Shown: positions 27,246 through 60,487 of the stretch, piece by piece
Layout of the letters: each line of letters opens with the position of its first letter
Position numbering within the stretch: position 1 is the first letter of the stretch
Assembly: GCA_964617735.1 (NCBI GenBank)
Contig: CAZTXT010000001.1
Location: forward strand, 12,260 to 76,259
Source of the DNA: an uncultured Candidatus Saccharibacteria bacterium
Lineage (GTDB): Bacteria > Patescibacteriota > Minisyncoccia > Phycocordibacterales > DSPV01
Direction: 5' to 3'
DNA length: 64,000 nt
Translations under genes and position numbers: made by a program
Notes under the pieces: generated by a model
Seen by the model: only the letters and a program-made list of their open reading frames with translations
What the model was told of the DNA's origin: nothing
Database searches by the model: none

Positions 27246-27276
27246 GCGGCGCTCCTCCTCGGAGCGCCGCTTTTTT
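27246..27276. terminator. bidirectional rho-independent terminator between purB and ileS
   Basis: 10-bp GC stem GCGGCGCTCC-tcctc-GGAGCGCCGC followed by TTTTTT. Confidence 0.8.
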
Positions 27277-30200
27277 ATTTCAATTCGAAATCGCCGGAGG
27301 AGAGGACGCCGTGGTTTATTTTTGAAAGTGACGCAGATTTCTTGATTTCAGATTCAAACTCCTGAAGCAGCCCTGTCGCGGCGACCGATGAAGAAGTTGA
27401 GAGAATTGCGGACTGGCCGGGCTTGAGCCCTTTTTGCTTGCGCAACTCTTGAATAGTGCGGATGGCTTCGCGCAAATCCCCTTCCCGCTTGAGCGCAGGA
27501 GTTATGGCGGTATCGAGCTCAACGTCAGTAGCGAGTTTCGCATCGACGACTATTTCTTTTACATTCACCTCGTCGAGGATGAGCTCTGGTGCAGAGACTT
27601 TCGTTTTTATCGTGAGCTTGGCGAGCGGCTGGCGAACATTGATCTTGGTTTTGGCGCGAGTCTCAAGCGCACGTGAGACGATGTCGCGTACAACCTTCAT
27701 GTCCGCAATAACCGACTGGTCCACCCGCTTCGCTTCTGGCCAATCTTCAAGATGAACGCTTTCTCTCGCTCCCCCCGCATTTTTGTAGAGATATTCCGCA
27801 AAGAATGGCGTGAACGGGGCCATCAGCTTGCTCAACCCGATGAGTATTTCTCGCAAGGTCGCGAGCGCTGCCGCTTTGTCCTTTTCGTCATCGCCCTTGA
27901 TGCGCTCGCGTGAGCGGCGCAGATACCACTGCGAGAGATCCTCGATAAACTCGCGAATGGCGCGTGTCGGCTCAAGGAGCTGGAATGCATCCAGGCGCTT
28001 GGTCACTTCAAGCGTAAGCTCGGAGAGCCGTGCGAGTATCCAGCGATCGAGGACGTCGACTGGGCTAGGAATTGAAGCGGTCTTTTTGTCCTCTGGTGCA
28101 TATAAGAGATAGAACGAGAGAACGTTTGCGGCAAGATTGAAAACTTTTTTGACCACTTCATCCACCGTGCGCTCATCGAAATTCTTCGCCTCGCCGGGCT
28201 GGTTGACCGAGTACATCCAGAAGCGTAAGGGGTCCGCGCCGTACTTTTCTATAGCGAGCCACGGGTCAACGGTGTTGCCGAGGGATTTGCTCATCTTCTT
28301 TCCCTGCGCATCGAGAATATGACCGAGGCAGATGACATTTTTGTACGCTTTGCCCTTGCCCATAAGAATTCCTACCGCATGAAGGGTATAGAACCACCCA
28401 CGCGTCTGATCGATCGCTTCGGAGATGAAATCGGCTGGATACCCTTGTGCCTTGTGAAAAAAGCTGGAATCAATGCGCTCCCGATTTTCAAAGGGATAGT
28501 GTTCCTCGGCGAACGGCATCGCTCCCGAATCGAACCAGACGTCCATCACCTCTTTGACGCGCTCCATCTCGCCACCGCAGTGGTCGCAGACGAGCTTTAC
28601 CGCATCAATGTACGGCCGGTGCAAATCGAGCTCGAAATTTCGGTTGCGCGGAATCCGGCGCCATTTCAATTCTTTGATGGCTGAGTTTTGCATAAACAGC
28701 TTCCCCTTCGGCCTTACGGCAAGGGACTGGGATACGTCAAAACCTTCTGCAGCCGAGGTCATCATCCACAATGGACCGTCGTGGCTGACGATGAGAACAT
28801 TCTTGCCGGCATAGGCCGCGTCGACTTCTTGGAGAAAAGATGCGACCCTTGCCTTAATCTGCAAGCGGCCCTCGATACCCCGAGCGTTTTGATAGAAATC
28901 CTCCGAGCGATTGATAAATAAATTGGAGAGCTCGGCGCTCGGCATACCTTCAAGCTCACCAACGCCCATTTCACGGAGTCGCTCGTCGAAAACTATTTTC
29001 TCTTGGGGGATGCCGAGCCTCTCTGCGATTATCCCTGCAGTTTCTCTTGTACGCTGAAACGGCGAAGAGAAGATAACATCGATATGCTGACGGGCAAGAA
29101 CCTCGCCCGTAGCTTTCGCCTGCTCTATCCCCTGTTCGGTCAACGAGTACGCCTGGCTGCGATCCGAGTTGAGTACTCGCTCGACATTATTTTTCGCTTC
29201 GGCATGACGCACCAAATAGAAATGCGCCCCGTCGCTTTTGCCCTCTATGTCGGCAACCGAGCCAGCCACTTTCTCTCTGTGGCATTTCCCACACTTCCAA
29301 ACCGGAAGCGGTGTTCCCCAGTAGCGTTCACGAGAGATCGCCCAGTCTTTTATTTCGCGCAGCCACTCGCCGAAGCGACCGTCTTTGATGTATGACGGTT
29401 CCCAGTTGATAGTCTGATTCTCGGCGACGAGCTTGTCTTTGAGCGCGCTCATCTTGATGTACCACGAGTCGCGCGCGAAGTAGATGAGCGGTGTGTGGCA
29501 TCGCCAACAGAAGGGATAAGAGTGCTGGTATTTTTCTTTATCAAAGAGAAGCCCGCGCCCAGCGAGATCTTTGATGATGGCGACATCAGTCTCGGGATCT
29601 TTGACGAACTTTCCCGCGAGAAAGCCGGTTTCTTCTTTGAAGGTCCCATCGTCTTTGACGAGGTGTTGTTTCGGAAGTCCAACCTTCGTGCCAAGTTCAA
29701 AGTCATCCTGTCCATACATCGGCGCAATATGGACGATCCCGGTGCCGTCGGCAGTCGTCACGAAATCTGCCGCGTACACTTTGCATGCCGTTCCGTTTGT
29801 TTTCATAAAGGGATAGATCGGCTCGTACTGACCGCCGACCAGATCTTCACCGGAAGCGAATACTTTGAATACTTTGTATTTTTTATCTTTCAAAACCGAA
29901 AGACGTTTGGTCGCAAGAATAAGACGCTCTTTTGTCTCTTCGAGCTCAACTTCGGTGTATTCGATCTTTGCCCCTACCGCGAGTGCGACATTGCCCGGAA
30001 GCGTCCAGGGAGTGGTCGTCCACGCCAGAAGATACGTGTTGTCTTTCCCAACAACTTTGAATTTCACATAGACCGAGAGATCTTTGACATCTTCATACCC
30101 TTGCGCGAGCTCGTGGGATGAGAGCGCAGTACCACAGCGCGGGCACCACGGCACGACTTTGTAATCCTTGTAGAGTAAGCCTTTGCCGTGAACATGCTTG

Positions 30201-30706
30201 ACGATATTCCAGAGTGACTCGATATACTGCGGTTGGTAAGTGATGTACGGATTTTTAAGATCAACCCAGTAGCCGATACGATTGGTGAAATCAGTCCACT
30301 CATTCACATGTTTCCAAACACTCACACGGCAATGCTCGTTGAACTCGGCGATACCGTATTTCTCGATTTCTTTTTTTGATTTGAGCCCGAGCTCTTTTTC
30401 AACCTGGAGCTCCACCGGAAGCCCATGCGTATCCCACCCGCCCTTGCGAGGGACTCGGTAGCCGCGCATCGTCTTGTAGCGAGGAATCGCATCTTTGAAT
30501 GCCCGCGCCTCGAGGTGATGGATGCCAGGCTTTGCATTTGCCGTCGGCGGCCCTTCGTAGAAAACGAATTCTTTACCACCGTTGTTTTTCTCCAGTGACT
30601 TCTCAAAAATCCCCTCTTTCTGCCAGAAGGCTAGTATTTCCTCTTCCTGCTGAACAAGTTTATTTTTTGGCTTTTCATCCATAAAAAAATGCCAGAATGG
30701 AGCCAT
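27275..30706 (-). CDS. ileS: isoleucine--tRNA ligase carrying an inserted histidine-phosphatase (PGAM-family) domain
   Basis: IleRS hallmarks: HIGH-like PGIHH, editing-domain WTTTPWTLPGN and GTGIVHIAPMYGQDDFELG, YPFCWRCHTPLIY, DLHRPYID...WFDSGAMPF, KMSKSLGN. Between the CGKC zinc-knuckle and DLHRPYID, where family members have ~30 aa, lies a ~200-aa block with LVRHAE, SSPFQRTRETA, ERLREMGVGELEG and SHDG. Start taken at MAPFWHFFMDEKPKNK (30706) or MDEK (30682); the upstream 85 codons of the computed ORF are not protein-like. Confidence 0.85.
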   Translation of the reverse strand: MAPFWHFFMDEKPKNKLVQQEEEILAFWQKEGIFEKSLEKNNGGKEFVFYEGPPTANAKPGIHHLEARAFKDAIPRYKTMRGYRVPRKGGWDTHGLPVELQVEKELGLKSKKEIEKYGIAEFNEHCRVSVWKHVNEWTDFTNRIGYWVDLKNPYITYQPQYIESLWNIVKHVHGKGLLYKDYKVVPWCPRCGTALSSHELAQGYEDVKDLSVYVKFKVVGKDNTYLLAWTTTPWTLPGNVALAVGAKIEYTEVELEETKERLILATKRLSVLKDKKYKVFKVFASGEDLVGGQYEPIYPFMKTNGTACKVYAADFVTTADGTGIVHIAPMYGQDDFELGTKVGLPKQHLVKDDGTFKEETGFLAGKFVKDPETDVAIIKDLAGRGLLFDKEKYQHSYPFCWRCHTPLIYFARDSWYIKMSALKDKLVAENQTINWEPSYIKDGRFGEWLREIKDWAISRERYWGTPLPVWKCGKCHREKVAGSVADIEGKSDGAHFYLVRHAEAKNNVERVLNSDRSQAYSLTEQGIEQAKATGEVLARQHIDVIFSSPFQRTRETAGIIAERLGIPQEKIVFDERLREMGVGELEGMPSAELSNLFINRSEDFYQNARGIEGRLQIKARVASFLQEVDAAYAGKNVLIVSHDGPLWMMTSAAEGFDVSQSLAVRPKGKLFMQNSAIKELKWRRIPRNRNFELDLHRPYIDAVKLVCDHCGGEMERVKEVMDVWFDSGAMPFAEEHYPFENRERIDSSFFHKAQGYPADFISEAIDQTRGWFYTLHAVGILMGKGKAYKNVICLGHILDAQGKKMSKSLGNTVDPWLAIEKYGADPLRFWMYSVNQPGEAKNFDERTVDEVVKKVFNLAANVLSFYLLYAPEDKKTASIPSPVDVLDRWILARLSELTLEVTKRLDAFQLLEPTRAIREFIEDLSQWYLRRSRERIKGDDEKDKAAALATLREILIGLSKLMAPFTPFFAEYLYKNAGGARESVHLEDWPEAKRVDQSVIADMKVVRDIVSRALETRAKTKINVRQPLAKLTIKTKVSAPELILDEVNVKEIVVDAKLATDVELDTAITPALKREGDLREAIRTIQELRKQKGLKPGQSAILSTSSSVAATGLLQEFESEIKKSASLSKINHGVLSSGDFELK

Positions 30707-30734
30707 TCTAGCATTTTGAACATGTTTTTGAAAT

Positions 30735-31067
30735 TTACCCGTTGAGGTGGCGGAAAGTCGAGACAACGTGTTGCCACGCAATGAGGTTAGCGACAAACGG
30801 TATCGCGACCTGATGTGTGAGCAAGCCTTCGAGGTCTCTGACCTGATCGAGGGCAGACTTGAAGGTGCTGATGAGTATCGAATACTCATCCAACTGTTCG
30901 CTGTTGAGCTTTGCGCACAGCTCGCTATCGTCCTCCTTGGCAAATCTAACCGCATTATCATAAGCGACGCTAAGTTGCTGCTCTCGCTCGGTTTCGGAGA
31001 GTCTCAAGAATTTTCTTGAGAAAACCTCGGTGATTATCTGTGGATTCGTAATATCAAGAGTATTCAT
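30735..31067 (-). CDS. hypothetical protein (~110 aa)
   Basis: Start taken at MNTLDITNPQ; the upstream part of the computed ORF overlaps a strongly structured non-coding element. Confidence 0.4.
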   Translation of the reverse strand: MNTLDITNPQIITEVFSRKFLRLSETEREQQLSVAYDNAVRFAKEDDSELCAKLNSEQLDEYSILISTFKSALDQVRDLEGLLTHQVAIPFVANLIAWQHVVSTFRHLNG

Positions 31068-31245: not shown

Positions 31246-32967
31246 CTACATCTTCTCCGGAACCTTGATACCCAGAAGCCACAACCCGTTGGTCATCACG
31301 GTTTTGAAGCTTCTGGTGAGCGCAACACGATACGGAGCGGTTTTTTCTTTCGCATCGGCGATCTGACGCTCGCCATAGTAGCGATTGAAGGCGGATGAGA
31401 GCTCGAGGAGATAGGTTGCGATGATATTCGGAGAAAGTTCACTCGCTGCGCGCGCTACGATGTCGGGGAAATGGGCGATGAGCCGCTCGACATCGGAGAT
31501 CGGCTCGAGAGCGGCGAGCGCGGCTGTCGCGCTCGCCGCGACCTTCGCCTCCTGTGCTTTTTTAAGGACCGACTGCGCCCGCGTCGCTGCGTACTGCAGA
31601 TACGGTCCCGAGTCGCCCTCAAGCGAAACTGATTTCTCAAAATCAAACACGATATCGCTGCCGATGGACTGTTTCAAGATGAAATACTTGAGCGCAGCGA
31701 TGCTCACCTGCTCGGTTATCTCCTCTTTTTCTGTATCGCTATATCCTCGGTCCACAATCTTTTCGCGCACTAAGTCAGAGATGCGCGCGATGAGCGCATC
31801 GGCAGTGATAATGTCGCCGCTGCGCGACGACATCTTTCCTGATGGCAGACGGAGCATCCCATGCGAGATGTGAACGGTCTTCTCCGCGAGCTTGGGAAGA
31901 ACCAGCTTCATGGCGGCTAAGAGAACTCGGAAATAATCGTTGACTTCATTGCCAGTCACGACGACCGAGCGGTCATATTTCCATTGCTCATATTTCATCT
32001 CTGCAAGGCCGAGTTCCTTTGCCTCGTAGGTCGGTATGCCCTGCGAGTTGATGAACACGCGGGTGTGCAGCTTAGGATCGTGTTTCTGTGCGTGAAAGAC
32101 CACGGCGCCGTCGCTCTTCTCGAAAATCTTCTTCTTGAGGCCTTCGTTGACAACCTTCATCCCCGTCGGGCCAGCCTCGCTTTCGAAGAAATAGAAATCG
32201 AACTTCGTGTCGAGGCGTTTATATTGCATCTCAAAATAGTCGAGTGAGACTTTCCGACCCCAGTCATAGAACGTATTGACCTCGCTATCGCTCCTCTCGT
32301 AGATCTTATGATTGAGCTTCTCGATATCTTCTTTATGGCCGTCTTCGTACGCCGCCGCGCCGAGCGCATACGCATGCCCGAGATAGCGCGCCTGCGCCTC
32401 AAGTCCCAGATTCTTTAAAGGGCTCTTGTCGCGATTCGGAACGCTCTGCATTCCCCAGATGGCTTTCGCAACATGAAGGCCAACATCGCCCTGATAGCAC
32501 GCTCGCTTAACATCTACTCCTTGTGCCTGAAAAAGTCTCGAGACCGATTCGCCGATTGTATTACTCATCAAATGGCCAATGTGAAATTCTTTGAAGGGGT
32601 TGGGGTCGGTGTACTCGACCATCACTTTCTCCTTTTTATCCGCTGTGCTCCAGCCAAAGTCTTTATTGTTCACTGCTTCGGCCAAGATTTCCGAGAAGTA
32701 TTCGCGCGTCAAGAATATATTGATGAATCCGGGCCCGGCGACCTCTACAGCGGCAACGCCGGCGATGTTCGCCGCGCGAATATCGCCGGCGATTTCCTCC
32801 GCAAGTTTTTTTGGGTTTGTTTTAAGAGTCTTTGCAGCAGTGAGCCCTACGTTCGTCGTTAAATCGCCGTTTACAAGATCTTCCGGCCGCTCGACGGAAA
32901 AACCAACAGAACCCGCACCCCGTGCGGACAGTATTTTCTGCAAGACCCTTTCAATAGTTTGTTTCAT
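31246..32967 (-). CDS. argS: arginine--tRNA ligase
   Basis: HIGH motif FHIGHLMSNTIG, KMSK-like MSSRSGD, C-terminal DALR anticodon-binding domain (...YLLELSSAFNRYY); 573 aa. Confidence 0.95.
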   Translation of the reverse strand: MKQTIERVLQKILSARGAGSVGFSVERPEDLVNGDLTTNVGLTAAKTLKTNPKKLAEEIAGDIRAANIAGVAAVEVAGPGFINIFLTREYFSEILAEAVNNKDFGWSTADKKEKVMVEYTDPNPFKEFHIGHLMSNTIGESVSRLFQAQGVDVKRACYQGDVGLHVAKAIWGMQSVPNRDKSPLKNLGLEAQARYLGHAYALGAAAYEDGHKEDIEKLNHKIYERSDSEVNTFYDWGRKVSLDYFEMQYKRLDTKFDFYFFESEAGPTGMKVVNEGLKKKIFEKSDGAVVFHAQKHDPKLHTRVFINSQGIPTYEAKELGLAEMKYEQWKYDRSVVVTGNEVNDYFRVLLAAMKLVLPKLAEKTVHISHGMLRLPSGKMSSRSGDIITADALIARISDLVREKIVDRGYSDTEKEEITEQVSIAALKYFILKQSIGSDIVFDFEKSVSLEGDSGPYLQYAATRAQSVLKKAQEAKVAASATAALAALEPISDVERLIAHFPDIVARAASELSPNIIATYLLELSSAFNRYYGERQIADAKEKTAPYRVALTRSFKTVMTNGLWLLGIKVPEKM

Positions 32968-33629
32968 AAGAGGATTTTCTGAACAGCCGCATACACGAGT
33001 TCGTGCACCTCGGGAATAGAGAGAAGTTTTCCGTTACGCTCACAATCAACCCGATGCCAGAAACTCTCTCTTGAGAGCATATATTTGCCGGCATCTTTCG
33101 AATTCTTGAGATACTCGAAATTCGAGTCTGCAGAATCGCGTATGCCTTCCCGTCTCGAAATAAGCTCAAGCGAGTGCTCATAGGACATATCCAGGTAGAT
33201 TATCGCATCGGGCTTTAATACGCCGAGTGTCCCGTACTCCATTGATTCGAGCCAGTTGAGGAATCGCGCGCGCTTCTTGTCATCGCGTATCTTTCCCCCT
33301 TGATGGATCTGATTGGAAGACACGTACCGATCGGCCACGACGATTTTCCCCGCATCGAGCCACTCTTTGATCCGTGGAACCGTCTCGAACCGGTCGCAGG
33401 CATATAAAACAGAGGTGATCTTCGGATCAAGCGAGATGAAATCGCCGCGTTTACCATCGAGACATTCACGGATAAGACCGCCGAAAAGATTCTTCTCATA
33501 TTGAGGAAAGCGGATGGACTCGGCAGGAATATGCTCTTTCTTGAATCGAAGAAGAAGCGCTTCAGTTTGAGTCGTTTTCCCTGATCCGTCCGTTCCCTCG
33601 ATCACGATGAACTTTCCTTTCCCCTTCAT
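32964..33629 (-). CDS. tmk: thymidylate kinase
   Basis: P-loop FIVIEGTDGSGKTTQ, DRY motif, LID region; 221 aa. Confidence 0.9.
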   Translation of the reverse strand: MKGKGKFIVIEGTDGSGKTTQTEALLLRFKKEHIPAESIRFPQYEKNLFGGLIRECLDGKRGDFISLDPKITSVLYACDRFETVPRIKEWLDAGKIVVADRYVSSNQIHQGGKIRDDKKRARFLNWLESMEYGTLGVLKPDAIIYLDMSYEHSLELISRREGIRDSADSNFEYLKNSKDAGKYMLSRESFWHRVDCERNGKLLSIPEVHELVYAAVQKILL

Positions 33630-33650: not shown

Positions 33651-34358
33651 CTACTTTTCGGCGAGTAACTCTTTAAGAAACACCAATGTCTCGTCGGGGT
33701 TTTTCACCGGATGCGTATCGATTACTCCGAGCACCGTGTCGTCGTTGCCGCCCGGGAAAAGCCTATCCCCGACATAGACGCATGCTGCTTTGTTCCAACC
33801 CTTTTGCTCGATCAACTGCGCAACATTGTAGCCTTTATTCTTGCCTTTGGGAGAATAGTCGAAGGTCGTCGTACCCCCGATCTTTACTTCCACGGTCTTT
33901 GAATTGAACGGGTGCTCGGCGAGCATCGTCGCGCGCCTCTTAGTATCGGGATCGAACGCCTCCTTTTTCTCTACATCCTCATTGTGACCCAAGAGACTAT
34001 AGGAGATCTGACTTCCTCGATCCTGCACCAAGTCGTCCTCATTGGAGACCTCCCACGTCCTCGGGATCGAAAGTATGTGCTTCCAAATCTCTTCTTTCTC
34101 GTCGGCAGAAAGGTCGCGGCGCCACAGCTCTTCTCCGGAAACCACATCGACGGCATGATTGCCGTTTTGGCAGAGATAGAGACAGGGAAAGCCTTCGGTT
34201 TGTTTTTCGATCAACTCTTTGGTTTGGCCGGAAACGATGATGACATCCCTGCCGCTTTTCTGCAGGGCACCGAGCGTCTCGCGCATCTCTTTGGTGATAA
34301 GCGACTTCGCTCGCGTGACCGTCCCATCCATGTCAAAAAATAAGTGAGTATAGCGCAT
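33651..34358 (-). CDS. phosphomannomutase, eukaryotic PMM/Sec53 type (HAD-IIB)
   Basis: LFFDMDGTVTRAKSLITKEM closely parallels PMM LFDVDGTLT...KITKEM; C-terminal GWNKAACVYVGDRLFPGGNDD parallels GWDKRYCL...FGDKTMPGGNDHE. Confidence 0.65.
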   Translation of the reverse strand: MRYTHLFFDMDGTVTRAKSLITKEMRETLGALQKSGRDVIIVSGQTKELIEKQTEGFPCLYLCQNGNHAVDVVSGEELWRRDLSADEKEEIWKHILSIPRTWEVSNEDDLVQDRGSQISYSLLGHNEDVEKKEAFDPDTKRRATMLAEHPFNSKTVEVKIGGTTTFDYSPKGKNKGYNVAQLIEQKGWNKAACVYVGDRLFPGGNDDTVLGVIDTHPVKNPDETLVFLKELLAEK

Positions 34359-35530
34359 TAGTGGTTACGTAAGATTGTATCGATACTCCGTGCAATGGCG
34401 ATGAAGTCTTCCTCCTTTTTACCGCGGGTCGTTTCCGCCGGTGTTCCCAGGCGGATGCCCGAGGGATCAGCCGGATTACGAGTGTCGAACGGGATCGCAT
34501 TTTTATTGACAATGATACCCGCGGTTTCAAGCAATGCGCTGGCATCCTTGCCACCCATGCCGATCGTGCCGAAAACGTCCACTAAAAGCAGATGCGTATC
34601 GGTGCCGCCCGAGACCAGCCGCCACCCCAGTTTCTGAAGGTTTTCCGCAAGCACTGCCGCATTTTTGATGACTTGCAGGGCGTATTTTTTAAATGCCGAC
34701 GTGTCGGCTTCTTTGAGCGCCACCGCGACCGCAGCGATCTGATTGGCATGCGGACCTCCCTGAAGGCCGGGGAACACGGCCTTGTCTATTTTTTTGTAAA
34801 GCTCACGGGTGTCAATGCGCGAGAAGATCATCGCCGCGCGCGGGCCGCGAAGCGTTTTGTGGACCGTGGTTGTGACCACATCCGCATACTCAAACGGCGA
34901 CGGGTAGACACCGCCCGCAACGAGGCCTGCGAAATGGGACATGTCCACCATTAAAATCGCCCCGCATGCATCGGCGATCGCCCTGAACTTTTTGAAATCA
35001 ACAATGCGCGGATAGGCAGTAAATCCTGCGACGATAATCGCAGGTTTCTCGGCAAGTGCGATCTCACTTAAATTCTCATAATCAAGCAGTTCGGTCTTCT
35101 TGTTCACCCCATACGGCACTTGCGTCCAGAATTTTCCGGTTGCCGAGACTTTGTGTCCATGTGTCAGATGCCCGCCGTGGTCAAGTGACATGCCCATGAT
35201 CTTTCCGCCGAGGGGCACGAGCGCGGTGTAGACCGCGAGGTTCGCCGGAGAGCCGGAGAGTGGCTGGACATTCACATGCCACTTGCCGAGCGAGAGGTTG
35301 AAGAGTTTGAGCGCGCGATTTTTCGCGAGCGTCTCGATCTTGTCTATGATCTGGTTGCCACCGTAGTAGCGAAAGCCCGAATATCCTTCTGAATATTTAT
35401 TCGTCAGTTCCGAACCCAGTGCCTCCAGTACGTCTTTGGAGACATAATTCTCGGACGCGATGAGATTGATAACTTTCTTCTGCCGCGCTTTCTCCGCGGC
35501 AATGAGTTTTTTGATTTGAGAATCCTTCAT
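34358..35530 (-). CDS. glyA: serine hydroxymethyltransferase
   Basis: NLIASENYVS start region, PLP-lysine region TTTVHKTLRGPR; 390 aa. Confidence 0.95.
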   Translation of the reverse strand: MKDSQIKKLIAAEKARQKKVINLIASENYVSKDVLEALGSELTNKYSEGYSGFRYYGGNQIIDKIETLAKNRALKLFNLSLGKWHVNVQPLSGSPANLAVYTALVPLGGKIMGMSLDHGGHLTHGHKVSATGKFWTQVPYGVNKKTELLDYENLSEIALAEKPAIIVAGFTAYPRIVDFKKFRAIADACGAILMVDMSHFAGLVAGGVYPSPFEYADVVTTTVHKTLRGPRAAMIFSRIDTRELYKKIDKAVFPGLQGGPHANQIAAVAVALKEADTSAFKKYALQVIKNAAVLAENLQKLGWRLVSGGTDTHLLLVDVFGTIGMGGKDASALLETAGIIVNKNAIPFDTRNPADPSGIRLGTPAETTRGKKEEDFIAIARSIDTILRNH

Positions 35531-35876: not shown

Positions 35877-36389
35877 TTAACGCGCGAACAAACGCTCGCT
35901 CCCCTCCAAGAGATACACGTCTCTGATGCCTGCCGCGATCATCGAATCCCAGCACGGCTTGCAGCACCACCAGTGGCCGTAGAGATAGATATCCGCACCG
36001 GAGAGATCTACGCCGGCCTTCTGCGCAGCGCGCACGAGACTGCTTTCCGCATGCTCTCGATGAGTCGAGCAGCCCGGGCAGACCCAGTAGGCCTTTCCCG
36101 TCGGGACATGGAGCATCTTTCTGATGCAGTAACGCTTATGCAATGCCAACAGTCTCGGATTTCGAAGGCGCGACTGATTTGCAGCGCGTGCGATTACCAC
36201 CGCGTCTTTGACCGCTACGCACCCCGTCGGATGGTTCGATTCTGTCGAAAGCGTATTGCGCACCCGCATAGCCTCCTGCATACAGGGGTCATCGGCAGAA
36301 ACATATTTGAAGGAACGATCATGCGGAAGATACGGATATTGAATTACCATATTGGCCAATTCTACATTATCTGAAAGATAATGGGGCAA
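35877..36389 (-). CDS. deoxycytidylate (dCMP) deaminase, ComEB-like
   Basis: Zinc ligands HAE (HREHAESSLV) and C-x-x-C (CKPC), GCVAVKDAVVIARAAN core; 170 aa. Confidence 0.8.
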   Translation of the reverse strand: MPHYLSDNVELANMVIQYPYLPHDRSFKYVSADDPCMQEAMRVRNTLSTESNHPTGCVAVKDAVVIARAANQSRLRNPRLLALHKRYCIRKMLHVPTGKAYWVCPGCSTHREHAESSLVRAAQKAGVDLSGADIYLYGHWWCCKPCWDSMIAAGIRDVYLLEGSERLFAR

Positions 36390-36460: not shown

Positions 36461-37297
36461 ATGACATGCTTCGACGAGCTCTATCAGGGTTTGGTGCGCG
36501 ATATCATGACAGAGGGCATTGACGAATATTCCGAGCGCACTAAGTACGGAACGAAAGCGCTGCCGGGAGCGCATTTCCAAACTGATCTTGAAACCGATGG
36601 ATTCCCAATCCTTACCTTGCGCAAAATCCCTCTGAAGATGTTCATCGCGGAGCAAGTCTGGTTCATCTCGGGACAGCGCAAGCCAGAAGTTTTTCTGCGC
36701 GACTTTACGAAGATTTGGGATAATTTCACCAATCCGCAGGATGTCGTGACGGTCGCGTATGGCTATCGCTGGCGCAAACATTTCGGCCGCGACCAGCTTA
36801 AACTTCTTATAGAGCTGTTGAAGAAAGAGCCGAGCTCGCGACAAGGAGTGGTGGTAACGTGGGACCCCGGTCAAGACGGACTCTCGCTCGCTAAAAAGAA
36901 AAATGTGCCTTGCCCCTATACGTTCACTGTTAATATCATCGGTGGACGGCTCCATCTCCACAACATCATCCGCTCGAACGATGTCATGCTCGGCGTCCCC
37001 GCCGACGTCAGCGGCTTTGCACTCCTCGCATACATTCTGGCGCAGCACCTCGGCGTGCGGCCCGGAATCTATTCTCACTCCATCTCAAACGCGCATATCT
37101 ATGAGAATCATTACGATGGCGCACGGGAGATCATGAAGCGAACGAACGACCATCCAAAAGTGACGCTCAAGCTCCCGAAGAACTCGTATGAACGCGCTGA
37201 GAAACTGGACAAAACGCTCGTGAACGAAATATTCGAGAACCTCTCTGCGCAATACAACCCGCTGGAAGCCATATCAGGACTAAAGATCGCGCTATGA
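36461..37297 (+). CDS. thyA: thymidylate synthase (ThyA) family enzyme with Asp at the Asn177 specificity position; predicted cytosine-nucleotide C5 methylase/hydroxymethylase or divergent ThyA
   Basis: Family motifs conserved: ERTKYGT, EQVWFISG, catalytic Cys in VPCPY (36911-36913), RSND, HIYENH. The segment LGVPADVSGFALL aligns gap-free with ThyA LGLPFNIASYALL, placing Asp (GAC 37004-37006) where TS has Asn177. Confidence 0.8.
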   Translation: MTCFDELYQGLVRDIMTEGIDEYSERTKYGTKALPGAHFQTDLETDGFPILTLRKIPLKMFIAEQVWFISGQRKPEVFLRDFTKIWDNFTNPQDVVTVAYGYRWRKHFGRDQLKLLIELLKKEPSSRQGVVVTWDPGQDGLSLAKKKNVPCPYTFTVNIIGGRLHLHNIIRSNDVMLGVPADVSGFALLAYILAQHLGVRPGIYSHSISNAHIYENHYDGAREIMKRTNDHPKVTLKLPKNSYERAEKLDKTLVNEIFENLSAQYNPLEAISGLKIAL

Positions 37298-37809
37298 TCC
37301 CTGCCTTTATTATCGCTGCAGTCTCGGCTGATGGATTCATCGCGCGAAACCCGGGCGAGAGTTCCATGGACTGGACTAGTGCCGCTGACAGGCAATTCTT
37401 TAGAGAAAGAACTAAGCAGGCGGGTGTGGTTGTGATGGGCTCGAAAACCTTCAAGACGATCGGTAAAGCGCTCCCCGGAAGAACCACGATCGTCTATTCA
37501 CGCCAGCCGAGAAATTATCTTGCCGGAGTCGAAGTAACCGACCAGGATCCGCAAACACTGCTCGCCGATCTAGAACGGCGGGGCTTTAAAGAAGTCGCTA
37601 TCTGCGGCGGCGCTTCTATCTATACCGCCTTCGCAAAAGCCGGATGTATAGAGAAGGCATACATCACGGTGGAACCGCATTTTTTTGGCGACGGTATCCG
37701 GCTCTTCAACGAAGCATTGGGCATCTCTCTCTCGCTCGCCGCAAGTAAACAACTCGCTCCCGATGTTTTACTATTAGAGTACAGCATCAAGCATGTCGGT
37801 ACTGACTAA
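37294..37809 (+). CDS. folA: dihydrofolate reductase
   Basis: MIPAFIIAAVSADGFIA..., VVMGSKTF, 171 aa; ATGA overlap with the thyA-like stop. Confidence 0.9.
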   Translation: MIPAFIIAAVSADGFIARNPGESSMDWTSAADRQFFRERTKQAGVVVMGSKTFKTIGKALPGRTTIVYSRQPRNYLAGVEVTDQDPQTLLADLERRGFKEVAICGGASIYTAFAKAGCIEKAYITVEPHFFGDGIRLFNEALGISLSLAASKQLAPDVLLLEYSIKHVGTD

Positions 37810-38434
37810 AAAAGAAATTCTGAAGCGCATACGAACGAACGATCTGCGCTTCAAGCCAGCGCTCGACTCGTTCCAGTTGCATGACCACGTCGTGGACTTG
37901 CGGCTGGGATTCACCTTTCTTATTCCAAAAACCTGGCGGCTGACGCCGAAGGGTCGGGAGACGGTGACCATAACCCACTTCAACAAAACAGGCCTGCAAT
38001 ATTTCGACGTCGTCGAACTGGAACAGGGGCAATACTTCGAGCTGCTCCCCCACGAGTACGTTATCGTTTCAACCCTCGAAACCATCACCGTTCCCAACGA
38101 CCTCATGGCAATCCTCTATCCCCGCTCCTCGACAAACCGCAAAGGGCTTTCACTCGACTTAACGGGCGTCATCGATTGCGGTTATGAAGGCACCTTGGCA
38201 CTTCCCGTGCGCAACAATACCGAGGCCCAAGTTGTGCGGCTCTACCCGGGTGAGCGGATCTGTCAGGTCGCATTCGAAGAATTGACCGAGGCGGTCGCAA
38301 CGCCGCACAAGCACAAATATCACCAGAAAGATATCATCGAGGGCGTAGGAAAGGAGAAAAACGCCGAAGCGACCCTCATTATGAAAGGAGACATTGACGG
38401 ACTTAAAAAACGCTACGGGATAGAGAGGATGTAA
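37793..38434 (+). CDS. dcd: dCTP deaminase/dUTPase-family protein (catalytic-Glu position not conserved; possibly a dUTPase-type enzyme)
   Basis: Dcd/Dut-fold motifs: PRSSTNRKGLS matches GRSSLARLGL, IDCGYEG matches IDPGWSG; the Glu of the dCTP-deaminase VLEF motif is absent. Confidence 0.7.
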   Translation: MSVLTKKEILKRIRTNDLRFKPALDSFQLHDHVVDLRLGFTFLIPKTWRLTPKGRETVTITHFNKTGLQYFDVVELEQGQYFELLPHEYVIVSTLETITVPNDLMAILYPRSSTNRKGLSLDLTGVIDCGYEGTLALPVRNNTEAQVVRLYPGERICQVAFEELTEAVATPHKHKYHQKDIIEGVGKEKNAEATLIMKGDIDGLKKRYGIERM

Positions 38435-38468: not shown

Positions 38469-38885
38469 TCAATACGACGGAATGCTGCATGCCCATTCTT
38501 CCCTGATCGCTTTCGCCGGATACTCCTCCGAGGCGAAGGTGCCGTAGAAGAAAAGTGACGGGTAAGACTCTCGGCACACGCACCGATTTATCTCCCCTTC
38601 CACAAATAAAAACCTCGGCTTCTGTAAACGCTTTGAGGCTTCGAGCGCCGACATACTGAAGCCGAGCGAAGAACCGCCAGCGAGAACCGCAACCACATCA
38701 ACAAAGGCGACGAAATCCGCAATATCCGCTTCGAATGGATCAAATGGGAGATCGGGAGTTGTGAAGTTGACAACCTCAATACCGCCGGCACGCAGAGCGT
38801 CCGCAAACCTCCGGAAACGACGGCTAAATTCCTGCCGTCGAACAATGGTAGAAGAACGTTCCAAACTATCGACATAGACTTTCAT
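38469..38885 (-). CDS. hypothetical protein, possibly a divergent nucleoside 2-deoxyribosyltransferase-like paralog
   Basis: MKVYV start and GGSSLGFSMSALEAS loosely resemble the NDT fold motif; weak call. Confidence 0.3.
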   Translation of the reverse strand: MKVYVDSLERSSTIVRRQEFSRRFRRFADALRAGGIEVVNFTTPDLPFDPFEADIADFVAFVDVVAVLAGGSSLGFSMSALEASKRLQKPRFLFVEGEINRCVCRESYPSLFFYGTFASEEYPAKAIREEWACSIPSY

Positions 38886-38963
38886 ACTAAAGATCTCCTT
38901 TCTAAGGTAAGTATAGCAGAAAAACGCCGCTCTCCCTTAAGGGACAGCGGCGTTGCCGGATTT

Positions 38964-39416
38964 CTACCGTATCCGCGCAAGGCGCAAGGCTTTCGGGGAC
39001 ATATATCTCCCGAAACGAACTACCTGAACGGTTGCGACGATATCTTCGATCCTTTGATAAACGACCGGAGAGTCAAGGCCGTGGGATTTGAGCGAGTCCG
39101 GTACGATCTGCGTTAAGTGCTGTTGTTCGTGCACAAACACACGCAACTGCTTCTTCGTCGTGTATGCATGCTTGAGCTCCATCCCCAGTCCGATGGACGC
39201 GTGATCGCAGACCGCAACAAAGAGCTCCGCGCGGTCTATGCACGACATATCATGATCGTACACATTGACATCCAAAAGCGGCTTCCCACCTTTGGATGCG
39301 TACTGGAGGACTTCACAACCATCATTTTCCAGCAACACGATCAGCCTCTCCATCTCCGCCAGAAATTCGGGTGGCGCACCCGTGATCTTGTGACCAACAT
39401 ATACAGGATATTTCAT
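38964..39416 (-). CDS. nucleoside 2-deoxyribosyltransferase / DNPH1 (Rcl)-like protein
   Basis: ASIGLGMELKHAY matches the catalytic-Glu motif DVGLGMELGYA of PF05014; ~150 aa. Confidence 0.65.
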   Translation of the reverse strand: MKYPVYVGHKITGAPPEFLAEMERLIVLLENDGCEVLQYASKGGKPLLDVNVYDHDMSCIDRAELFVAVCDHASIGLGMELKHAYTTKKQLRVFVHEQQHLTQIVPDSLKSHGLDSPVVYQRIEDIVATVQVVRFGRYMSPKALRLARIR

Positions 39417-41660: not shown

Positions 41661-42536
41661 CTACTGGGTCCACCGAACCTGACGCCCTGCCGCCTCAATG
41701 AGATTTTCAAAGAGGGAGAGCACGGTCATGGGGCCGACTCCCCCGGGCACGGGAGAGAGCGCACCCACGATGCCTTTGACTGACTCGAAATCAACGTCAC
41801 CCATAAGACGTGTGGCTTTATGCTCTTCAGAAACTAAAGCGCCGCCCTCGAGACTGATACCGACATCAACGATAGTCTGTTGCGCACTGACATGCTCGGA
41901 GCGGATGAGCGCGGGTTTCCCCACTGCCGATATGAGTATATCCGCCTGTTTGGTGATCCGCGGCAGATCTTGCGTGAACCGATGACAGATCGTCACGGTG
42001 GCGTTTCGATTGAGCAGCGCGAGCGCGGTGCTTTTGCCTGCCAAGAGCGAACGCCCAACAACCACTACCTGCTTCCCTTCGATTACTACGCTATAGTAGT
42101 CCAAAAGTAACAAAATGCCCTTGGCGGTCGCTGGCACGAAACCCTGGTGGTCGTTCTCAAGGAGGGACTTGAGGTTGAGGGCGGTGAGACCATCGACATC
42201 TTTGTTCGGTTCGATGGTCTCGATGATGACGCGCCGATCGAGCTGCTTGGGCAGTGGGAACTGCACGATGATACCGTTGACCGACGATTCGCTATTGAGA
42301 CGCTCAATCTCGTAGAGCACTTCGTCGAGGGGAACATCGGCGTTAAAGCTCACGAGCTCTACATGGACGCCGATCTCCTCCGCGAACTTCTGCTTTTGAC
42401 TGATGTAGGACTGCGAGCGTTCATTATCCCCTATCTTAACGATACCGAGCACGGGCGTAAAGCCGAGTTCTTTGATACGGCGGCGCAGATGCGGCACGGC
42501 GCTCTCCTTGATTATTTTTCCGTCGAGCAGAAGCAT
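41661..42536 (-). CDS. folD: bifunctional methylenetetrahydrofolate dehydrogenase/cyclohydrolase
   Basis: FolD family core (GIIVQFPLP, VVGRSLLAGK, PVPGGVGPMT); start taken at MLLLDGKII. Confidence 0.9.
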   Translation of the reverse strand: MLLLDGKIIKESAVPHLRRRIKELGFTPVLGIVKIGDNERSQSYISQKQKFAEEIGVHVELVSFNADVPLDEVLYEIERLNSESSVNGIIVQFPLPKQLDRRVIIETIEPNKDVDGLTALNLKSLLENDHQGFVPATAKGILLLLDYYSVVIEGKQVVVVGRSLLAGKSTALALLNRNATVTICHRFTQDLPRITKQADILISAVGKPALIRSEHVSAQQTIVDVGISLEGGALVSEEHKATRLMGDVDFESVKGIVGALSPVPGGVGPMTVLSLFENLIEAAGRQVRWTQ

Positions 42537-42611
42537 AGGTGTAAGAAATTGTAGCATTCGCATGGAGCAAAGAAAAACGCGATCCGTGATAGGCGAATCG
42601 CGTTGAGCGAA

Positions 42612-57027: not shown

Positions 57028-60000
57028 CTAGAAAATCTTCTTGAGGAAATTACCGATGCGCTGCCAGAAACCAGTCTTGGGTTGACCCACCGAATTGATG
57101 ACGGCGGCCGAAGAAGATTGCTTCTTGATCGAACCGACATCGGGAGTAGGAGTCTCTTTAGGCGCTGAAGTACCGGCAGGCGCGGGCGTCACTGACGGAT
57201 GAACAGTCGTGTTCTGAGTGGGAAATGCCGAGTCGCCCATCGCTTTTATGCGCGCGATCTCATCGAGCTGCTGCTGCGTCAGCGGAAATTCTTTCGTGAA
57301 CTTGCAATAGGACTCGTTGATCTTCTTACGCGTCGTGTAGTAGACGTAACCGGTCGAACGCGTTGCACCCCACGGAGCGAGAATATCTTTGGCATAGCGT
57401 AGCTGGAAGGCGTGCACGGCTTTATAGGAGGCGGCATCATAGATGCCCGTGTCGGAAACATCGGTGAATCCTTCCAGGTCACGCAGGAAGCGCTGGAGAC
57501 GAGATACCTGCGTCGAATCGTTCTTCCGATCGATGTGGATGTAGCTGGTCAGGTACTGATCACAGTCTTCAGCAGAAACACCGAGTACCTGTCCGGTCGG
57601 TCCGGTCGAAGCGCCGAGCACTTGACCCACGGGTCCTCCGCTGCCTCCGCCGCCGATCGGCCCATTACCCGGAGGAGGGTTGCCGCCACCGCCTCCACCA
57701 CCCCCGCCCGGAGGCGTCGGGGTGTTAACGGTTACCGTTCGAGTAGTCGTAGCACCTAAAGCACCCGAATCAGTCACTGAATAGGTCCGGGTGTAAGAAC
57801 CTGCAGTGTTCGTATCTACTGTACCCGTCATAACGATGCTTGCGGTAAGATCGCCATCTTCAACATCCGACGCGGTCGCACCCGGATCGGTGAACGTGTC
57901 GCCGACCGTAAGGCTCATCGGGTTCGCTCCATTAAGGGTTATCGTCGGCGGATTATTCGTTGGACCCCCGCCTGAAGCAGTGTCGTCGTTGGTGATCGTG
58001 CATGACTTCACATCGCCTGCAGAAAGGGTGATGTTCCCGCTTGAATCGCAATCACCGCCGATGGTCGCCGTGTAGTTGGGATCAGCAGTCTCCGAAACGG
58101 TATGTGCCCCGACGGTGGTCGTCGTAGTCGCGCCCGAAACAACCGGGCTTCCGTCGATGAAGAGCGGAAAATCAGAGACTTGCTTGGTACCACCGTTGTC
58201 ATTGACGACAATCTTCACGACGGTAAGTGTCGGTACAAACGCGGCGCAATCGGGATCCGCAAGGTCGGTCAGATCGTCACCGTCATTGTCGATGCCGTCG
58301 GTACAGAGCGGCAAGGTATTTTCAACCGGTTGAGCGACCACATGCACCGTCCTTTTAACCTGGACCGCAGGGTTGCCGGCGGCATCACTGACATCATAGG
58401 TAACCCTGTAGGTGCCGAGCGTAGAGGTGTCGACAGGATTTGACGTTACGATGCTTGCGGTCAGATCACCATCGACGATGTCCTGTGCCGTCGCACCCGC
58501 ATCGGTATAAATCGTATTTTGAGTTACATCGAGAGTCGCCGCTCCGGTTAACGTAATGATGGGAGGCGTCGTATCCTCTACGAGAACCGTGGCCGTGTCA
58601 GAGCCAGTATTGCCGGATGAGTCGGCTACAGAACAACTGATCGTACTGGTGCTCAGCGGGAAGGTATCGCCGGTGGCGAAATTGCAAGAAACGGAGCCTG
58701 AGAGATCACCGTCAACGATGTCAGTCGCAGTTACGGTAAAGCTCGCCGGGGTGCCCGAGGGACCGGTTGCTTCAAGGGTTTGAGTATCCGGACTGATCTC
58801 CACGTCGGGTGCTGTCGTGTCCTCTACAGTCACCGAGAATGCGACGCCAGCGCCGACATTACCCGAAGAGTCCGTGGCCGTACACGCGACTTGCGTCGTG
58901 CCGAGCGGGAAGGTACTTCCCGAGACCGGTGTGCAGGAAGTAGGTATGGTGCCATCTGCGTCATCCGTTGCGGTTACCGCAGGATACGTTACGGTGGCGC
59001 CTGCAGGACCGGTCGCCTCGGTAACGATATTAGTTTGCGTATTGATAACGGGAGCATTTACATCAGAAACCGTAACCGTTCGCGTCTTCTCGACGGCAGG
59101 ATTACCGGCGGCATCGATGGCGTTGTAGGTGATCACATATACGCCCGGGACGCTGGTATTGATCGTATCGCCCCCCGTCGTCACCGAAACGGAACCATCG
59201 ACTATATCAACGGCAGTAGCACCGGCGTCGACATAGGAAGCGCCGACCGTAAGATTCACGGAGCTTGACCCGTTGAGCGTTATGACCGGAGGCGTCGTGT
59301 CGACAACGGTCACCGTTGCGCTATCAGAACCCGTATTCCCCGCCGCGTCCGTCGCTGAACAGGTGACGGTTGCGGTTCCGAGAGCGAACGTAGCGCCTGA
59401 CGCGATAGTACAAGTTGCAGATCCGGAGATATCTCCATCAACGGTATCTAGTGCGCTAACGGTGTAGTTCCCAACCGCGCCCGAGGGGCTGGTTGCTTCA
59501 AGGGTTTGAGTGCCGGGAGTTATGGTTACGACCGGAGGAGTGGTATCAGGAGTAGCAGCATCATCATTGGTGACTATACAGCTGTAATTCTCGCCAGCTA
59601 CTACAGTCACTGAGCCATTGGTAGTGGTCGCATTATTACCACTGCAGATAACACTGGTCTGGTTATACCCCGGATGGGCATCTTCCGTAACGCTATAAGT
59701 ACCAGGGTTCAGAAGAAAATCCTGACCATTTTCTGAACCGGAGAATGACTGACTTGCGAAGTGGAGTGTGAAAGCTGAAGAGGTCGCGGTTCCGCCATTA
59801 TCATTCACGACATGCTTCTTTACTGTTACTACCCCCTGCGTCGGTGCAGCAACACACTGGTTCACGCTGAACAGATGGCTGTCATTACCCGTTGGTTGAC
59901 CATGGTAGAGGTAAATGATAATGATATTTCCCCCTTGAGTCGGAGTGAACGTGCCAAGAGTAACATTATGGAAAGGAGTATCGGCTCCAGAAGCGACAGC

Positions 60001-60249: not shown

Positions 60250-60430
60250 AAATCTTTATATAAACTCCTTTAGTAAATCGTATGATATCTTGACGTCAAA
60301 AAAATTTTGTTTTGCGAATTGTCCATTCGCTTAGTTAGGGGTATCCTACGCAGCACTTACGAAATGTCAATGACTTTCGCATCGATGCTATACACCTCTT
60401 TTCCCCACTCTGTCCACAGTAGCAAAAACA

Positions 60431-60464
60431 CAAAACAGCCCCGCTTTCGCGGGGCTGTTTTCTT
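60431..60464 (-). terminator. rho-independent terminator downstream of the giant repeat-protein gene
   Basis: CAGCCCCGC-tttc-GCGGGGCTG flanked by A/T runs. Confidence 0.65.
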
Positions 60465-60487
60465 GACACCGAGCTGCCTCTTCTTAG

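Follow-up and report, generated by a model that had tools for sequence, protein, structure and literature searches.

In cells, dTMP is classically made from dUMP by ThyA or ThyX. Asp-type ThyA homologues, that of bacteriophage Xp12 included, make 5-methyl-dCMP in vivo, and this formation has been demonstrated for Xp12 and five metagenomic homologues only (bioRxiv 10.1101/2024.12.05.627091). Such homologues are typically linked to genes of the dCMP-deaminase family, and the deaminases linked to the Xp12-type enzymes yield dT nucleotides (bioRxiv 10.1101/2024.12.05.627091). The stretch of DNA analysed here, called the window, comprises 64,000 nt (64 kb) of a ~675-kb contig (CAZTXT010000001.1) of an uncultured Candidatus Saccharibacteria bacterium, and all positions are given in the numbering of the whole stretch. 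It contains a gene for an Asp-type ThyA-fold enzyme, ThyA(Asp), predicted to be a folate-dependent dCMP C5-methyltransferase of the Xp12 type. Together with its neighbours, this enzyme may form a route dCTP -> dCMP -> 5-methyl-dCMP -> dTMP at a housekeeping locus of the Paceibacteria/Parcubacteria, a reading that is considered moderately probable. The same moderate confidence applies to a milder version, in which a whole bacterial class would lack a dUMP-dependent thymidylate synthase (TS) and would use a third cellular thymidylate route that methylates first and deaminates afterwards. The novelty is lowered by the methylate-then-deaminate route already described for phages; the enzyme type and this logic are published there, and the new part would be the housekeeping route of a cellular lineage. 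Literature searches among freely readable texts (subscription-only papers were not covered) turned up no description of such a route in any cellular organism.

The ThyA homologues of cytosine-modified phage contigs are best told apart from those of unmodified ones by positions 177 and 147, with position 147 ranking second for the cytosine-modifying homologues (PMC8670742). An exchange of Asn for Asp switches TS into a dCMP methylase (PMC8670742), which supports the use of this exchange as the TS-to-dCMP switch in an earlier note on this DNA. The residues of ThyA(Asp) were matched to those of E. coli ThyA through MAFFT and through HMMER alignments with solved TS structures, and the codons were translated directly. 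The protein matches Pfam PF00303 (Thymidylat_synt) with 183.8 bits and an E value of 4.7e-54 (cutoff 24.3). The HMMER alignment to the solved structures is gap-free through RSNDVMLGVPADVSGFALL vs RSADIFLGVPFNIASYALL, and MAFFT with E. coli ThyA reproduces this register, gap-free across the pocket segment RSNDVMLGVPADV. HMMER, MAFFT and the codons agree with the statement of the earlier note that the alignment runs without gaps, that the catalytic Cys is kept and that the Asn is replaced by Asp (GAC). The equivalents of E. coli R21, E58, W80, Y94, R126, R166, S167, D169, H207 and Y209 are retained, the general acid/base residues Glu58 and Tyr94 being Glu64 and Tyr100 of ThyA(Asp). However, W83 is replaced by Phe (Phe89), R127 by Gln and F176 by Ala. 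The set His147/Trp83/R126/R127 of canonical ThyA therefore reads Pro152/Phe89/Arg127/Gln128, and Asp182 stands in place of the Asn177 that marks the canonical dUMP-dependent enzyme. An AlphaFold (AF2) model built with 21 homologues has a pLDDT of 93.8. Foldseek superimposes it on full-length TS structures with TM scores of 0.83-0.88, the C-terminal tail included, and PDB 1NJC is among the structure matches.

The replacement is a property of the lineage. A word-indexed search gave 2253 homologues at E<=1e-10, and residues were counted in the 120 closest (70-100% identity), whose sources are Parcubacteria, Taylorbacteria and Paceibacterota metagenome-assembled genomes. A GTDB scan with one genome per species found a relative in 439 genomes. 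All locus counts refer to the best 80 of these 439, with neighbouring genes taken within +/-6 kb of thyA(Asp); these 80 all belong to the Patescibacteria (Taylor-, Adler-, Kaiser-, Colwell- and Liptonbacteria, Paceibacterota and Minisyncoccia). Position 177 is Asp in 120/120 homologues and in 80/80 loci, and position 147 is Pro in 77/80 and Leu in 3/80. A sequencing error or a strain oddity at Asp182 is thus ruled out, and close orthologues do not carry Asn, the two outcomes that the earlier note had named as counting against it. Among the top 150 representatives of the family in an exhaustive search, 126 have Asp177, 101 of those together with Pro147 and almost all with Phe83, whereas the 19 Asn-type representatives (19/19) keep His147, Trp83 and Arg127.

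Comparison with described enzymes places ThyA(Asp) beside the Xp12 group. Its best matches in phage collections are the enzymes of Xp12, PaMx74, PaMx28, AAT-1, phiH1/2, Elanor and Mallos (35-38% identity, E values of 1e-39 to 1e-45), compared with ~1e-27 for T4-like td. The identity is 36-37% to the Xp12 and PaMx74 enzymes, 29% to E. coli ThyA and 24% to T4 gp42. Besides the ThyA fold and the residues Asp177, Pro147 and Phe83, which are also those of PaMx74, PaMx28, AAT-1, Elanor and Mallos, ThyA(Asp) has in common with the Xp12 and PaMx74 enzymes, and not with E. coli ThyA, the motifs AYGYRWRxHFGRDQ, WDPxxDGL....KNVPCP and AHxYExH and a YNP-containing tail. A hidden Markov model (HMM) of the Xp12 type scores ThyA(Asp) at 283 bits versus 222 bits for the canonical (Asn-type) model, a preference of 61 bits. 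In a neighbour-joining (NJ) tree from which T4 gp42 was left out, and from which six signature columns were taken out in order to avoid circularity, the split between the window clade plus the Xp12 type and canonical ThyA has a bootstrap of 98%. The alignment and phylogeny against ThyA, gp42 and phage methylases that the earlier note proposed thus lead to an Xp12-type grouping. Like canonical ThyA (EC 2.1.1.45; E. coli, L. casei), ThyA(Asp) has the fold, the catalytic residues, the C-terminal tail and the coupling to DHFR, GlyA and Tmk; it departs from it in Asn177->Asp, His147->Pro, Trp83->Phe, Arg127->Gln and Phe176->Ala, and may be regarded as a natural counterpart of the engineered N177D/N229D dCMP methylases.

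The sugar and the folate chemistry can also be compared. The ribose-preferring enzymes MilA and BcmA have Ala at the position of TS-Ser167 and Lys at that of TS-Arg126', versus Ser and Arg in deoxy-specific enzymes (PMC5175136). ThyA(Asp) has the deoxyribose-specific pair, Ser172 and Arg127, in contrast to Ala176/Lys133' of MilA/BcmA. These CMP hydroxymethylases are likewise ThyA homologues of the Asp type whose genes lie in bacterial and not in phage genomes, and they are sometimes paired with an N-glycosidase of the nucleoside 2-deoxyribosyltransferase (NDT) family; unlike ThyA(Asp), MilA has a large extra C-terminal domain, serves secondary metabolism and has no DHFR link. In T4 dCMP hydroxymethylase the 27 C-terminal residues with which TS closes over its folate are missing; the product is tetrahydrofolate (THF), so that DHFR is not needed (PMC5175136). 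T4 gp42 has in common with ThyA(Asp) the ThyA fold, the catalytic Cys and the Asp at the base-reading position. However, ThyA(Asp) keeps the TS-type tail, which aligns with the TS and Xp12 tails, and is coupled to DHFR: the folA ATG overlaps the thyA(Asp) stop (CTATGA, with ATGA shared), an overlap that the earlier note had also read. The Ser/Arg pair, the TS-like tail and the translationally coupled DHFR favour reductive methylation of a deoxynucleotide. Thus, the F-x-P-x-D signature, the grouping, the TS-like tail with its linked DHFR and the linked CDA-fold deaminase all correspond to the Xp12 type.

The locus is organised in two divergent gene blocks. In window order, the minus strand carries argS, tmk, a HAD hydrolase gene, glyA and the deaminase gene; the plus strand continues with thyA(Asp), folA and the dcd-like gene. 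Next come two small open reading frames (ORFs), rplK, nusG and, further on, folD (Table 1). In the related loci L006-L008 and in the 80 species genomes of the Patescibacteria, this block is again flanked by argS and rplK-nusG-secE, and the thyA(Asp) block is thus a vertically inherited housekeeping locus and not an island. The deaminase gene adjoins thyA(Asp) in 78/80 loci, and the Dcd-like gene is found in 76/80, GlyA in 67/80, DHFR in 66/80, Tmk in 44/80, FolD in 34/80 and a classical small Dut in 33/80; no classical Dut was found in the 64-kb window itself. The family matches of tmk (PF02223/TIGR00041) and glyA (PF00464) bear out their earlier assignment upstream of thyA(Asp). GlyA would regenerate the 5,10-methylene-THF. 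The folA genes of the candidate phyla radiation (CPR) can stand in for that of E. coli in complementation (PMC11974145). In Xp12 and PaMx74 the core of the window module is present in the order hydrolase - thyA(Asp) - dCMP deaminase - DHFR, and the combination of thyA(Asp), a CDA-fold deaminase and a RibD_C-like DHFR is common to the window and the Xp12 group. The window DHFR is homologous to the DHFR-like gene of Xp12 (E 3e-11); the window HAD-IIB hydrolase is not homologous to the Xp12 HAD gene. Unlike in Xp12, thyA(Asp) of the window lies on a chromosome, in a position that hundreds of cellular genomes keep between argS and rplK, and is linked to Tmk, GlyA and FolD; the deaminase belongs to another subfamily, and Arg127 (E. 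coli numbering) is replaced by Gln. Rfam over the whole window gave two tRNAs only, with no riboswitch at the cluster.

Table 1. Features of the thyA(Asp) locus in the window and of related loci on phage-like contigs
Feature	Position	Strand	Evidence or remark
Tmk, dTMP kinase	32964..33629	-	PF02223 77 bits; TIGR00041 83.7 bits (cutoff 83.25)
HAD-IIB hydrolase between tmk and glyA, accessory	33651..34358	-	PF08282 58 bits; 4/80 loci
GlyA, serine hydroxymethyltransferase	34358..35530	-	PF00464 532 bits
CDA-fold zinc deaminase, divergent from thyA(Asp)	35877..36350	-	PF00383 43.5 bits
ThyA(Asp), ThyA-fold enzyme, 278 aa, Asp182/Pro152/Phe89	36461..37297	+	PF00303
Catalytic Cys151 (E. coli C146)	TGC 36911-36913	+	codon translated
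Pro152 (E. coli H147)	CCC 36914-36916	+	codon translated
Asp182, base-specifying residue (E. coli N177)	GAC 37004-37006	+	codon translated
DHFR (DHFR_1/RibD_C type)	37294..37809	+	PF00186 73 bits; PF01872 66.7 bits
Dcd/dUTPase-fold protein, Pro138 for the catalytic Glu	37793..38434	+	TIGR02274, PF22769
Second small ORF, aligning loosely with 38964..39416	38469..38885	-	no family match
Small ORF, weakly NDT/DNPH1-like, accessory	38964..39416	-	PF05014 E 0.025
FolD, methylene-THF dehydrogenase/cyclohydrolase	41661..42563	-	synteny with PF00763/PF02882 genes in L006-L008
Phage-like thyA(Asp) locus, contig L092	2590-6616		CDA-fold deaminase next
Phage-like thyA(Asp) locus, contig L093	4950-8153		CDA-fold deaminase next
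Phage-like thyA(Asp) locus, contig L094	6001-7899		CDA-fold deaminase next

The deaminase is predicted from its sequence and position to act on 5-methyl-dCMP, and possibly also on dCMP. It carries the motifs HAE (36045-36053) and CKPC (35952-35963) and a conserved His/Cys3 cluster, and these motifs are kept in the family; every source name seen in its clade is from the Patescibacteria. The earlier description of a dCMP deaminase gene at 35877..36389 stands as far as a divergent CDA-fold gene (PF00383) is concerned, but its start is probably different. Three candidate starts are available: TTG 36389 of the mechanical ORF, ATG 36350, and 36269 of the public gene call (L001). The public call cuts off the conserved segment YPYLPxGR..YV, and since this conserved N-terminus begins at ATG 36350, the start is probably there rather than at TTG 36389. 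A profile of the deaminase family finds dCMP deaminases as its top PDB matches, at weak values (2HVV 7.5e-7, 4P9C 7.5e-6), and a PDB search with the single sequence gave no match. Comparison ruled out the window deaminase as an orthologue of the Xp12/PaMx74 deaminases or of the deaminase domain of P0137, a deaminase-ThyA(Asp) fusion protein described below. Deaminases active on 5-methylcytosine (5mC) are reported to be polyphyletic (bioRxiv 10.1101/2024.12.05.627091), and a remote relationship fits this report.

The third characteristic component is the Dcd-like protein, which scores 108.4 bits against TIGR02274 (cutoff 92.8) and is annotated in all sources as dCTP deaminase, as ThyA(Asp) is annotated as thymidylate synthase. 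Its gene overlaps folA by 17 nt. As in dCTP deaminase Dcd and the Dcd-like dUTPases, it has the Dcd/dUTPase fold, the RSS..R motif and GxIDxGY; Ser111, Arg115 and the GxIDxGY motif are retained in the segments RSSTNR and GVIDCGYEG. However, the alignment to 1XS1 places Pro138 (CCC 38204-38206) at the Glu138 of E. coli Dcd, so that the Glu expected of a dCTP deaminase is absent, and the overlap with folA and the missing Glu both agree with what had been noted before. Pro occupies this position in 120/120 closest Dcd-like homologues and in 76/76 cluster copies of the gene. The window clade further differs from Dcd in a conserved 40-aa C-terminal extension (KYHxKD...MKGDIxxLK) and in its co-occurrence with classical Dut and thyA(Asp). 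The Pro-type gene also occurs in two other, independent contexts, beside the P0137 fusion gene on L090 (35% identity, Pro kept) and on the phage-like contig L092, where thyA(Asp) and then the deaminase gene are present (38% identity, E 6e-30). A scan of IMG/VR for Dcd-like proteins, which used N-terminal patterns only, gave no confirmed match, a weak negative given the Pro-type homologue on L092. T4 gp56 was considered as a model for the Dcd-like protein and rejected, as there is no similarity.

In cytosine-replacing phages, the enzyme that modifies dCMP is as a rule accompanied by a dCTP pyrophosphatase. Partners of this type are exemplified by the MazG/PRA-PH genes in the Xp12 group and by the fusion P0184. 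By analogy with this pairing, the Pro-type Dcd fold might be a dCTP diphosphatase (dCTP -> dCMP + PPi, pyrophosphate); this role is a guess and the weakest link of the proposed route. The Dcd-like protein is unlikely to be just the dUTPase of the cell, because a classical Dut shares the cluster in 33/80 loci. Two short chains deposited as dCTP deaminase are among the PDB matches of the Dcd-like protein: 9LN0 (156 aa), where the name may have been carried over in annotation to an enzyme of the dUTPase type, and the similar 8Y1W (155 aa).

Taken together, these components suggest a route in five steps. The Dcd-like protein with Pro138, having lost the deaminase Glu, would hydrolyse dCTP to dCMP and PPi, so that dCMP would presumably come from a Glu-less Dcd-fold protein and not from a MazG or HAD hydrolase as in Xp12. 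ThyA(Asp), by homology and by the Asn->Asp rule, would convert dCMP and 5,10-methylene-THF to 5-methyl-dCMP and dihydrofolate. The divergent zinc deaminase would turn 5-methyl-dCMP into dTMP, which Tmk would phosphorylate to dTDP, and the folate would be recycled by the translationally coupled DHFR with GlyA and FolD. The chemistry would be that of the canonical series dCTP -> dUTP -> dUMP -> dTMP, with deamination shifted from the first to the last step, and no uracil nucleotide would be an obligatory intermediate. The logic proposed for Xp12 and its linked 5mC-selective deaminases (mSCD), in which thymidine nucleotides arise from deaminated 5-methyl-deoxycytidine nucleotides, is similar. The presence of Tmk in the cluster would place deamination at the monophosphate level, with dTMP rather than 5mC DNA as the presumed end product. 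Cytidylate kinase is reported to be poorly represented in Parcubacteria (PMC4508563), and its scarcity would keep 5-methyl-dCMP out of the triphosphate pool. The coordinated changes point the same way: Dcd appears to have lost deamination and ThyA to have lost uracil reading, and a separate deaminase lies beside thyA(Asp). The signatures, the phylogenetic grouping, the fold and the synteny are direct observations; the substrates in each step are inferred from sequence. Of the two scenarios in the earlier note, the first, methylation of dCMP followed by deamination, is best supported by the signature, the grouping and the conserved housekeeping locus; each sequence-based test that might have overturned the reading came out in its favour.

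Several points weigh against this route. The substrates of all members of the clade, too, are inferred, and the window clade is a sister of the characterised Xp12 group (36-37% identity), not nested within it. One phosphate-binding Arg (E. coli R127) is Gln128 in ThyA(Asp). The deaminase is only remotely related to the Xp12/mSCD deaminases (hhalign E 0.015, with a poor MAFFT alignment). Glu-less Dcd homologues may simply be dUTPases, which makes the dCTPase role of the Dcd-like protein a guess; archaeal Dcd-like dUTPases are of the Glu-less kind, and in PDB 9LN0, whose deposited name is dCTP deaminase, Met stands at the position of E. coli E138. The classical Dut in many clusters shows that these cells still process dUTP and dUMP. 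The fusion of a deaminase with ThyA is compatible with either reaction order, and the one phage deaminase characterised uses 5mdCTP rather than 5mdCMP (bioRxiv 10.1101/2024.12.05.627091). Finally, thyX or a canonical thyA may lie elsewhere in the genome, beyond the 64 kb of the ~675-kb contig. The search for a second TS proposed in the earlier note found neither ThyX nor a second ThyA in the 64-kb window, and in the +/-6 kb flanks of the 80 genomes ThyX was found in 0/80 and a second ThyA in none. A published Parcubacteria gene table lists thyA (COG0207), and thyX does not appear in the accessible part of its text.

The explanation that survives best beside the proposed route, although unlikely, is an ordinary TS. 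ThyA(Asp) would then methylate dUMP, the deaminase would convert dCMP to dUMP as in the Gram-positive type, and the Dcd-like protein would be a dUTPase derived from Dcd. This agrees with the database name thymidylate synthase and with a TIGR03284 score of 133.3 bits, above the cutoff of 108.35, whereas the score against NF002497 is 153 bits versus a cutoff of 327 and is likewise far below those of the other PRK01827 ThyA equivalog models. The genes dcd-like, dut, dCMP deaminase, thyA, folA, glyA and tmk would make a textbook dTTP operon, and the order of the canonical reactions fits the deaminase-ThyA fusion. A Glu-less Dcd homologue does exist (9LN0, with Met), and archaeal-type proteins of this kind are dUTPases. 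However, Asn->Asp mutants switch to dCMP, and all tested natural Asp-type enzymes use cytosine nucleotides. The co-variation with Pro147 and Phe83, as in the proven dCMP methylases, and the replacement of Glu by Pro in the Dcd-like protein would also go unexplained if the enzyme were an ordinary TS. The 98% bootstrap grouping with the dCMP methylases stands against it, and two dUTPases, Dut and the Dcd-like protein, would be redundant in a genome of ~0.7 Mb in the 33/80 clusters that have both.

An enzyme of dual specificity is quite unlikely. It would methylate both dCMP and dUMP, the deaminase would take both dCMP and 5-methyl-dCMP, and the two branches would meet at dTMP. The Dut in many clusters would supply the dUMP, and the window clade does score between the two HMMs. 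dCMP deaminases tolerate 5-substituents. The linked phage deaminase family spans members active on C, 5mC and 5-hydroxymethylcytosine (bioRxiv 10.1101/2024.12.05.627091). However, no natural dual-specific ThyA is documented in the literature covered, and the water network of His147 for the uracil O4 is lost with Pro152, as in the cytosine-specific enzymes.

Modification of the DNA in the manner of phages is also quite unlikely. In such a cell, 5-methyl-dCMP would be phosphorylated and incorporated so that 5mC stands for much or all of the chromosomal C, and the deaminase would divert some of the 5-methyl-dCTP to dTTP, on the Xp12 scheme. The same module is present in Xp12 and PaMx74, whose DNA has 5mC in place of all C, the nearest relatives outside the Paceibacteria lie on phage-like contigs, and the only characterised linked deaminase uses the triphosphate. 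However, Tmk in 44/80 loci implies a dTMP intermediate, and the loci have no phage-type dNMP kinase, whereas the phage-like contig L093 has a dNK-like kinase. The poor representation of cytidylate kinase argues in the same direction, as does, weakly, the window GC of 52%, which shows no obvious long-term decay of 5mC to T. A literature search found no report of globally methylated Patescibacteria DNA. The wholesale form of this modification, in which the replicative polymerase would use a nucleotide derived from 5-methyl-dCMP, 5mC would be present chromosome-wide and the deaminase would split the pool between 5mC and T, is very unlikely. A dCMP hydroxymethylase that makes 5-hydroxymethyl-dCMP as T4 gp42 does, with the deaminase and the NDT/DNPH1-like proteins processing the hydroxymethyl nucleotides, has in its favour the Asp common to gp42 and the nearby NDT/DNPH1-like ORFs (DNPH1 hydrolyses hmdUMP, according to PDB names), but is highly improbable given the 24% identity to gp42, the ~60 bits of gp42 on both the Xp12-type and the canonical HMM, the TS-type tail that gp42 lacks, the conserved coupled DHFR that is needed only if dihydrofolate is made, and NDT-like genes in only 6/80 clusters.

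The nearest relatives of ThyA(Asp) outside the Paceibacteria are P0124, P0128 and P0130, encoded on the phage-like contigs L092, L093 and L094. These contigs carry HNH, helicase and DNA pol A genes, and in each of them thyA(Asp) is followed by the CDA-fold deaminase gene. In addition, L092 has the Pro-type Dcd-like gene and a MazG-like gene, and L093 a dNK-like kinase gene and an NDT-like gene. Since these nearest relatives lie on phage-like contigs, exchange between Paceibacteria and phages, in one direction or the other, is plausible. Fusion proteins were also observed. P0137 (433 aa; locus at L090 8001-9973) joins a dCMP-deaminase-family domain and an Asp-type ThyA in one gene, with a ribonucleotide reductase nearby. 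Further Asp-type ThyA fusions among the family representatives are P0184 (MazG/PRA-PH + ThyA(Asp)), P0259 (ThyA(Asp) + LOG/SLOG) and P0161 (HNH + ThyA(Asp)); the LOG/SLOG partner is a possible nucleotide N-glycosidase, reminiscent of the MilA/MilB logic.

The two small ORFs between the dcd-like gene and rplK (38469-39416) are an accessory insertion, and the one at 38964-39416 is lineage-specific. The earlier assignment of both as deoxyribosyltransferase/DNPH1-like genes holds weakly for ORF 38964-39416, which reaches 15 bits against PF05014, below the cutoff of 28.8, with PDB NDT/DNPH1 chains matching the same segment at E values of ~1; an NDT-like homologue is present in 6/80 loci. Its motif SIGLGMEL resembles the catalytic-Glu motif of NDT (G-x-G-x-E-L-G). 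A homologue (E 4e-11), itself only a weak PF05014 match, lies directly after the thyA(Asp)-deaminase pair on L093 and has the SIGLGMEL motif too. The single-sequence AF2 model of the ORF is unusable (pLDDT 41). The assignment does not hold for ORF 38469-38885, which has no Pfam or NCBIfam match and no homologue in the 80 related loci.

Other observations were made elsewhere in the window. The isoleucyl-tRNA synthetase (1228 aa, 27275-30961, minus strand) has a histidine-phosphatase domain (PF00300) at aa 581-746 inside the class-I catalytic core, and the same insertion occurs in L006-L008. A protein of the F420-0:gamma-glutamyl ligase family (7437-8195, minus strand; PF01996, 116 bits) is encoded in this reduced genome together with glyA, folA and folD; it might polyglutamylate folate rather than F420. 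Two adjoining proteins of ~1075 aa (57028-63745, minus strand) with HYR, Big_3_5 and Ig-like repeats and a peptidoglycan-binding domain are probable cell-surface adhesins of an episymbiont.

A phage-type enzyme, a deaminase and a deaminase-dead Dcd hold the housekeeping thymidylate locus in the 80 Patescibacteria species examined. If the proposed route is true, cells would have a third way of making thymidylate, without any obligatory uracil nucleotide, and thousands of annotations as thymidylate synthase or dCTP deaminase, together with the metabolic models of CPR bacteria, would need correcting. Another question would then be whether CPR bacteria and their phages have passed the module between them, and biotechnology would gain new dCMP methylases, dCTPases and deaminases active on 5mC. 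Pre-replicative 5mC in any cell would become a directly testable question, and should wholesale 5mC be true, this free-living or episymbiotic lineage would be the first case of a cellular organism in which one DNA base is replaced wholesale.

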